From Alphaproteobacteria bacterium (GTDB taxonomy: Bacteria > Pseudomonadota > Alphaproteobacteria > MPNO01), in contig OZ242200.1 in NCBI GenBank assembly GCA_965205995.1, positions 19,233 through 83,232 of the forward strand: a DNA stretch of 64,000 nt, given 5' to 3'. Made by a program: the position numbers and the translations under genes. Below, one piece after another: positions 32,070-32,746 of this stretch. Positions within the stretch are counted from its first letter, which is position 1, and every line of letters starts with the position of its first letter. Under the pieces are notes generated by a model that had not been told where the DNA came from, ran no database searches, and saw only the letters and a program-made list of their open reading frames with translations.

Positions 32070-32142
32070 CGTGCGAAACTAGTCGAAACGCCCGCCGAAT
32101 CGAAGCCTCGCCGCCCGGGGATCGCCGCGCCATCGCATATGG

Positions 32143-32170
32143 TTGACTGGCTCTTGCGAGTCCCTATAAT
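32143..32170 (+). promoter_or_regulatory. near-consensus sigma70-type promoter TTGACT-16nt-TATAAT upstream of rpsM region
   Basis: TTGACTggctcttgcgagtcccTATAAT read directly; followed by AGGAGG RBS and GTG at 32238. Confidence 0.5.
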
Positions 32171-32357
32171 CCGGCCACCCGAATGGGACATCCATTTTCG
32201 GAACCCCGGACTTCATCCCGATGCAGGAGGCCGCGTCGTGGCGCGAATAGCTGGCGTTAACCTGCCTAATCCGGCCACCCGAATGGGACATCCATTTTCG
32301 GCTGGACTTCATCCCGCAAGGCCGCGTCGTGGCGCGAATAGCTGGCGTTAACCTGCC
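32167..32357. repeat. imperfect tandem duplication (100 nt + 91 nt) of rpsM leader + first 10 codons
   Basis: TAATCCGGCCACCCGAATGGGACATCCATTTTCGG...GACTTCATCCCG...CCGCGTCGTGGCGCGAATAGCTGGCGTTAACCTGCC occurs twice head-to-tail (32167-32266, 32267-32357); copy 1 retains AGGAGG RBS, copy 2 has it degraded. Confidence 0.8.
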
Positions 32358-32746
32358 GCCGATCGAGATCGCGCTCACCTATATCTTCGGGATCGGGCGC
32401 ACCAGAGGGCGGCAGATCTGCACCAAGGCCAATGTCGAGATCGCGCTCACCGATCGGGCGCACCAGAGGGCGGCAGATCTGCACCAAGGCCAATGTCGAG
32501 GGCACGATGCGGGCCAACGACCTCGCCGACGACGAGCTCGTCCGGATCCGCGAGATCATCGACCGGGAATACAAGATCGAGGGCGATCTGCGCCGCGAGA
32601 CCGCGATGAACATCAAGCGGCTGATGGATCTCGGCTGCTATCGCGGGCTGCGCCACCGCCGCAACCTGCCGGTGCGCGGCCAGCGCACCCATACCAACGC
32701 GCGGACACGCAAGGGCCGCGCCCGCCCGATCGCCGGCAAGAAATAG
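32329..32746 (+). pseudogene. rpsM: 30S ribosomal protein S13 gene, disrupted by internal 72+61 nt tandem duplication (frameshift)
   Basis: GTG 32329 frame gives [37 protein letters not shown] then frameshift; S13 C-terminal two-thirds ([20 protein letters not shown]...[43 protein letters not shown]) continues in +1 frame ending 32746. Confidence 0.65.
32368..32500. repeat. internal tandem duplication inside rpsM (unit 1 72 nt, unit 2 61 nt with 11-nt deletion)
   Basis: ATCGCGCTCACC[TATATCTTCGG]GATCGGGCGCACCAGAGGGCGGCAGATCTGCACCAAGGCCAATGTCGAG repeated; second unit lacks bracketed 11 nt. Confidence 0.85.

Follow-up and report, generated by a model that had tools for sequence, protein, structure and literature searches.

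A duplicated and frameshifted rpsM in an alphaproteobacterial metagenome-assembled genome is probably an assembly artefact

Introduction

The closest described relative of the locus studied here is the bacterial alpha operon, rpsM-rpsK-[rpsD]-rpoA-rplQ, which is preceded by secY, adk or rpmJ in most bacteria. In E. coli, the rpsM leader and the first codons of the gene form the S4 operator of this operon. For a gene with a shifted reading frame, the programmed frameshift genes of the prfB or dnaX type offer a comparison, and in this class the frameshift is conserved in the orthologues. Tandem duplications that arise by slippage or template switching consist of head-to-tail copies, and newly born slippage duplications are exact copies. 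A technical origin of such structures has been described as well: in metagenome assemblies made with metaFlye and metaMDBG, false duplications with zero read support and contig stretches derived from a single-read minority variant were found, with spurious or lost ORFs as the result (Trigodet et al., bioRxiv 10.1101/2025.04.22.649783).

Here, a stretch of 64 kb (hereafter the window) from a metagenome-assembled alphaproteobacterial genome was analyzed, in which a preliminary description had noticed a frameshifted rpsM with two imperfect tandem duplications. At face value, a core ribosomal protein gene would be broken in a free-living bacterium, a remarkable finding if true. By homology, the locus is an ordinary uS13 gene heading an rpsM-rpsK-rpoA-rplQ operon. 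The gene order of the alpha operon is kept, with S11, RpoA and L17 following directly after S13 in the same order in all related contigs, and two S13 fragments in the window jointly span the whole S13 profile. In contrast to the described operon, rpsD is missing, no single ORF covers the S13 domain, and secY, adk and rpmJ are not found upstream; instead, a divergent acyl-CoA ligase gene and an aldehyde:ferredoxin oxidoreductase (AFOR) gene are located there, and the operon has its own promoter. This arrangement (window 30489-34737) is conserved in all related assemblies.

The rpsM orthologues are all uninterrupted, which sets the locus apart from programmed frameshift genes. Its head-to-tail copies and a 5-nt TCGAG microhomology at the junction of a 72-nt unit resemble slippage or template-switch duplications, whereas the four deletions and one substitution in the second copies and a first junction that has no microhomology do not. 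With the cases of Trigodet et al. (bioRxiv 10.1101/2025.04.22.649783) it shares a direct repeat present in one assembly, spurious ORFs, the destruction of a genuine ORF and a contig that is otherwise accurate. Those cases, however, mostly span hundreds of nt or more and have been demonstrated by mapped reads, whereas the units in rpsM are 61-100 nt long, one of them is degraded by small deletions, and they are known from the contig sequence alone.

Materials and Methods

Relatives of the window were found by exact-sequence look-up of the adjacent S11 protein, which led to ten places in public assemblies. In addition, a 29-nt pattern covering the rpsM start was scanned in species-representative genomes and JGI metagenomes. 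Near-identical contigs were fetched via other exact proteins such that the whole window was covered, and every difference was catalogued. The window was split into maximal exact matches to L004 (ERZ26694192 contig_6), which served as the same-strain reference. The rpsM duplications were resolved by a repeat scan and direct alignment; Tandem Repeats Finder reported neither of them, because the indels take the duplications under its score threshold. For the leader comparison, positions 32171-32300 of the window, positions 3552-3680 of L004 and the relatives L005-L007 and L015 were used.

Results

The features of the rpsM region and one further tandem pair are listed below with their coordinates in the window.

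30489-32069, minus strand: AMP-binding acyl-CoA ligase gene, 526 aa, divergent, forming the left edge of the rpsM intergenic region (taken from the ORF list)
32143-32170, plus strand: sigma-70-type promoter of rpsM, TTGACT-16-TATAAT, matching the consensus at 11 of 12 positions (expectation in shuffles 0.2)
32167-32266, plus strand: copy 1, 100 nt, with leader, AGGAGG ribosome binding site (RBS), GTG at 32238 and rpsM codons 1-10
32238-32351, plus strand: 37-codon ORF from the GTG of copy 1, ten S13 codons followed by the second leader copy and a TAG stop
32267-32357, plus strand: copy 2, 91 nt, in which the leader and ten codons recur in degraded form, with GTG at 32329 (repeat scan and alignment)
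32329-32841, plus strand: 170-aa ORF from the GTG of copy 2, with 36 S13-like residues, then out of frame
32357-32359, plus strand: site of a 6-nt deletion (AACAAG/GAACAA, codons N11-K12) as compared to all relatives
32363-32434, plus strand: first copy of a 72-nt coding block (TCGAG register), codons ~13-36 counted from GTG 32329
32435-32495, plus strand: second copy of the 72-nt block, 61 nt, without TATATCTTCGG, the source of the +1 frame shift
32432-32746, plus strand: 104-aa ORF with the C-terminal four-fifths of S13, identical to residues 24-120 of the S13 of relatives
32769-33161, 33247-34269 and 34300-34737, plus strand: rpsK, rpoA and rplQ, all intact
47379-47451, minus strand: perfect in-frame 36-nt tandem duplication (AIDELGARGVQI twice) in an Amidohydro_2 gene, private to the window

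Repeat scan and alignment confirmed that the rpsM leader and the first 10 codons are duplicated head-to-tail, first as 100 and then as 91 nt, as the preliminary description had stated, and exact blocks of 35, 13 and 39 nt are common to the two copies. The last four bases of the promoter (TAAT) are at the same time the first bases of the duplicated 100-nt unit. Copy 1 is equal to positions 3545-3644 of L004 with no differences, and its RBS at 32225-32230 is followed 7 nt further on by GTG 32238. It was also correctly described that copy 1 combines a near-consensus promoter and an AGGAGG RBS with a short ORF only; this ORF comprises 37 codons and has no Pfam match. The S13 frame is indeed headed by copy 2 with its degraded RBS. 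There, CT stands in place of AACCCC (-4 nt) and CAAGG in place of ATGCAGGAGG (-5 nt), by which the Shine-Dalgarno sequence is lost and just AAGG is left ahead of GTG 32329. The 6-nt loss of codons N11-K12 in copy 2 comes in addition to the features noticed before.

Inside the gene, the 72-nt block, which corresponds to codons ~15-38 of intact relatives and has TCGAG on either side in the reference, recurs directly as a 61-nt copy from which 11 nt are missing, and an exact block of 49 nt is common to both. Since 61 mod 3 equals 1, the C-terminal part of S13 lies in the +1 frame relative to GTG 32329, again in agreement with the earlier claim, and a full S13 is not contained in any ORF. The 170-aa ORF overlaps the start of rpsK by 73 nt and matches the Pfam S13 profile (PF00416) at positions 1-39 with 25.3 bits, which is under the cut-off of 31 bits. 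The 104-aa ORF matches positions 23-128 with 85.4 bits, as compared to positions 1-128 with 110 bits for the intact relative L004, whose S13 gene lies at 3616-3978. Hence, where a single ORF for full-length uS13 would be expected, the window has two S13 gene fragments. A second rpsM was not found within the 64 kb by tblastn. The downstream genes rpsK, rpoA and rplQ proved to be as intact as had been claimed.

Exact repeats of 35-49 nt at a spacing of 61-100 nt cannot be chance. Besides these, the repeat scan of the whole window yielded just one similar tandem pair, at 47379-47451, and a natural array of 108-nt coding repeats.

Gene order in all ten places with identical S11 was AFOR, AMP-ligase (divergent), S13, S11, RpoA, L17, DegP and MgsA. 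The 526-aa ligase with PF00501/PF13193 was present in all syntenic contigs, and S13 was a 120-aa PF00416 protein in ten out of ten. Alignment to four of the ten places showed gains of 91 and 61 nt and, between the two, a loss of 6 nt in the window, which adds up to a net length change of +146 nt relative to intact relatives; the distance between the ligase start and the rpsK start is 700 nt in the window and 554 nt in relatives. Between the window and the same-strain reference L004, 8.3 kb of sequence beside the rpsM anomaly contained 3 substitutions and no indel, and window 32452-37161 was 100% identical to L004. The pattern scan added three species-representative MAGs, each named 'Alphaproteobacteria bacterium' and with ~86% identity to the window, as well as a single JGI contig. 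At the DNA level, rpsM was a single-copy gene of 363 nt at 8/8 loci (4 conspecific, 3 from other species and the JGI contig). It was always 120 codons long at this locus in relatives, with an uninterrupted frame, and 15-19 synonymous versus 7-9 non-synonymous codon differences to other species indicate purifying selection. The duplicated structure is thus missing from independent assemblies of the strain, species and genus, as a false duplication would be. Neither rpsM junction occurred in any public sequence scanned, in collections that may not contain, or may mask, the source. Exact look-ups of the 104-aa and 170-aa rpsM ORFs and of the 348-aa amidohydrolase of the window gave no recorded match.

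The promoter TTGACT-16-TATAAT is invariant across 7 relatives. The rpsM leader together with codons 1-21 showed zero changes, not even synonymous ones, across species that are ~86% identical genome-wide, whereas ~25% of codons 22-120 differ across the same species. The duplicated unit consists of the rpsM leader and first codons, from which the S4 operator is formed in E. coli. With the Rfam model Alpha_RBS (RF00140), the two copies in the window scored 23.3 and 18.6 bits and the relatives 21.1-24.7 bits, all of which are under the gathering threshold of 38 bits. RNAalifold paired the Shine-Dalgarno sequence (GCAGG) with codons 9-10 (CCTGC), and no covariation was found in the leader. In contrast to the E. 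coli operator, the likeness with its sub-threshold scores and lack of covariation is a resemblance only. The rpsM leader is an unproven candidate that may function as an mRNA-level translational operator in this alphaproteobacterial lineage.

The path of the contig through L004 was as follows. The window follows the reference up to 3644, jumps 100 nt back to 3545-3579, replaces AACCCC by CT, continues with 3588-3598, replaces ATGCAGGAGG by CAAGG and proceeds with 3611-3645; then 6 nt are skipped and 3652-3732 is read. From there, the path jumps 72 nt back over the TCGAG microhomology to 3661-3672, skips 11 nt and follows L004 from 3684 onward with 100% identity for 4.7 kb. The two junctions read CCTGCC/TAATCC and GTCGAG/ATCGCGCTCACC/GATCGG; the second is that of the 72-nt unit with its 5-nt microhomology, the first has none, and the copies are not exact. 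In this manner, ~190 nt are traversed three times by the contig path and 188 nt are re-read as a deletion-rich copy. The middle pass is ~91% identical to the reference, and nearly all differences are deletions: its 173 nt contain 4 deletions and 1 mismatch, and the 11-nt deletion follows directly after. Altogether, the rpsM stretch combines two back-jumps with four small deletions (-4, -5, -6 and -11 nt) in ~300 nt. According to this path, recombination between the 39-nt blocks would leave the 6-nt deletion behind, so that a simple repeat collapse would not restore the wild type.

The census of differences gave a different picture for the remainder of the window. Private substitutions numbered 11 in the 43.5 kb for which two or more other assemblies were available (2.5e-4 per nt), and private small indels outside rpsM were absent from the window in comparison with the near-identical contigs. 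Besides the two duplications in rpsM, the 36-nt duplication at 47379-47451 was the only private length change in 64 kb. Coding indels among strains were multiples of three (6, 9, 36 and 90 nt), apart from two 1-nt indels in sister assemblies, and indels of 3-4 nt at 12.7-12.8 kb were intergenic. By contrast, the changes in rpsM amounted to +91, -4, -5, -6 and +61 (72-11) nt. By our own arithmetic, ~0.04 events would be expected in the 173-nt middle pass, whereas at least 5 were observed (Poisson P ~1e-9). The local error density is far over that of the rest of the contig, which is what a false duplication or a non-representative consensus would produce. This excess of events excludes a step-by-step decay after duplication, and the rpsM structure would have to have arisen at once, either in one complex event or as an artefact.

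The bases lost from the second copies (AACCCC, GCAGGAGG, GAACAA and TATATCT.CGG) are invariant or nearly so across species with a genome-wide identity of ~86%, and they include the Shine-Dalgarno sequence GCAGGAGG and codons N11-K12. Two candidate explanations were rejected. Gradual pseudogene decay is at odds with the lack of any other private small indel in 64 kb and with private substitutions at just 2.5e-4 per nt. Copy 2 as the allele of a co-assembled strain was discarded as well, since it lacks bases that do not vary in any strain or species.

Discussion

We consider it likely, with a probability of roughly 0.8, that the duplicated and frameshifted rpsM does not represent the genome of the organism but is an assembly or consensus artefact, or at most derives from one aberrant molecule or read that was used as backbone. 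The preliminary description had listed an assembly or consensus artefact or a molecule of a mixed population among the possible explanations, and it is this one that is strongly favoured here, with a single-copy, in-frame 120-aa S13 in all other assemblies. The structural anatomy, its privacy to one assembly and its incompatibility with gradual divergence have been established above; the technical cause is inferred. Following this, we propose that few reads would map to a falsely duplicated stretch, which would consequently stay unpolished, and that for this reason only the middle pass would be noisy. The true gene would then be the 120-aa uS13 of the relatives with its own TTGACT-16-TATAAT promoter and the conserved leader, and it would head the rpsM-rpsK-rpoA-rplQ operon. 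The sister contigs carry names of the kind given by long-read assemblers (contig_N; ctgN_18x_l), and some of them contain gene-splitting 1-nt indels. Judged by these names, they come from the type of assembler that Trigodet et al. (bioRxiv 10.1101/2025.04.22.649783) studied.

Several observations speak against an artefact. Base-level accuracy is excellent elsewhere in the window, with 0 private 1-nt indels, and the assembly is not generally noisy. The TCGAG microhomology at one junction is like that of real slippage duplications, and the 6- and 9-nt tandem-repeat length polymorphisms are genuine in the population. Moreover, documented false duplications made by assemblers are mostly longer than 60-100 nt. 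If the artefact reading is correct, essential genes can be broken and spurious ORFs created by local 'stutter' duplications in an otherwise base-perfect MAG. For such assemblies, the annotation and the numbers of pseudogenes should be compared with sister assemblies or reads.

A real and recent complex mutation, in which one multi-step template-switching or serial-slippage event (MMBIR-like) hit the 5' end of rpsM, comes next but is unlikely. The sequence exists as given, the second junction has its 5-nt microhomology, and slippage-type length polymorphisms in the population as well as the further private 36-nt tandem duplication would be in line with such an event. Moreover, rpsM null mutants of E. 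coli are reportedly viable but very sick. On the other hand, at least six breakpoints in ~300 nt would be needed in a window with no other private small indel in 64 kb, the first junction is devoid of microhomology, the Shine-Dalgarno sequence is destroyed and invariant bases are removed. A severely unfit mutant is also unlikely to become the consensus of an environmental population, and the structure is missing from the same strain in other samples. A lineage with the allele of the window would make no full-length S13, or only the N-terminally truncated 104-aa form. The narrower proposal that the structure is real in the sequenced cells and goes back to a single multi-breakpoint template switch at the highly transcribed 5' end of rpsM appears even less probable; the duplicated unit begins within the -10 box, about at the transcription bubble. 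If it were true, a natural alphaproteobacterial lineage without full-length S13, or with the truncated 104-aa form, would have been found, and with it an environmental S13-deficient ribosome and a bacterial example of an MMBIR-like complex mutation. The statement that the change should be lethal or strongly polar is borne out insofar as rpsM is disrupted in the window, whereas lethality and polarity were somewhat overstated: the out-of-frame ORF would be translated past the start of rpsK, so that polarity of the Rho type is not obligatory.

It is very improbable that the locus is a tolerated pseudogene which decayed while a second, intact rpsM elsewhere supplied S13. The detachment of the operon from the usual secY-adk context makes a second copy at the ancestral position conceivable. 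However, no second rpsM lies within the 64 kb, and the copy at this locus is intact and 120 aa long in all relatives, the same strain among them, and evolves under purifying selection there. Gradual decay is excluded, no other private change was found nearby, and the downstream genes rpsK, rpoA and rplQ are intact and presumably unique.

Production of full-length S13 by recoding can practically be dismissed, whether through a programmed frameshift, slippage during transcription or a regulatory upstream ORF. In its favour, the frames of the two S13 halves are adjacent, and the short ORF driven by the strong RBS ends 20 nt past the second GTG. However, recoding sites are conserved within lineages whereas every relative has a plain in-frame gene, the product would carry an insertion of ~20 aa and be deprived of N11-K12 where S13 is most conserved, the second RBS is degraded, and a reading of the sequence by eye revealed no slippery motif. 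Programmed frameshifting or slippage, which had been suggested before, is thus refuted as a feature of the lineage because the relatives need none and the extra sequence is private to one assembly. Taken together, a reading of the duplicated rpsM as biology is not supported by these sequence comparisons.

The remaining private length change of the window, the 36-nt duplication, affects the Amidohydro_2 gene at 46752-47798 (minus strand), which codes for 348 aa in the window as compared to 336 aa in three near-identical assemblies. It could be either a natural slippage polymorphism or a second assembly duplication, and it may well be real because small natural tandem-repeat polymorphisms exist in the population. 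Such variation was seen at two further sites: L012 has one copy less of a 9-nt unit (CGACATCAT) at 24054-24075, and both L002 and L003 have one copy less of the 6-nt unit CTGGCG at 34880. These copy-number differences point to natural in-frame slippage variation in the population. A longer difference concerns 53353-53453, where ~90 nt of the window and L009 are missing from L008 (ERZ26694192); as inferred from the gene calls, a DUF805-like gene is shortened from 134 to 104 aa by this in-frame, strain-specific indel.

Single-base indels were found in sister assemblies at positions corresponding to 27297 (versus L013) and 40186 (versus L008), and they are missing from the window and the other relatives. 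In L013, DctM is split into 390 and 38 aa by a single-base indel. Since these 1-nt indels are confined to one sister assembly each, where they split genes, they are probably errors of the sister assemblies, which indicates that indel errors may occur in that family of long-read MAGs. A different kind of gene split was observed in the RND membrane-fusion-protein gene at 21819-23192 (plus strand), in which an in-frame stop at 22257-22259 gives ORFs of 146 and 295 aa. The gene is split likewise in L012 and L013 (142 and 285 aa), while L011 and another contig have a 453-aa product, and a shared nonsense polymorphism seems a better explanation of the split than an error. Lastly, the 378-aa ORF at 16429-17565 (plus strand) contains about six coding repeats of 108 nt (36 aa) with 67-95% identity at 16656-17319, and this array looks like that of an ordinary repeat-domain protein.
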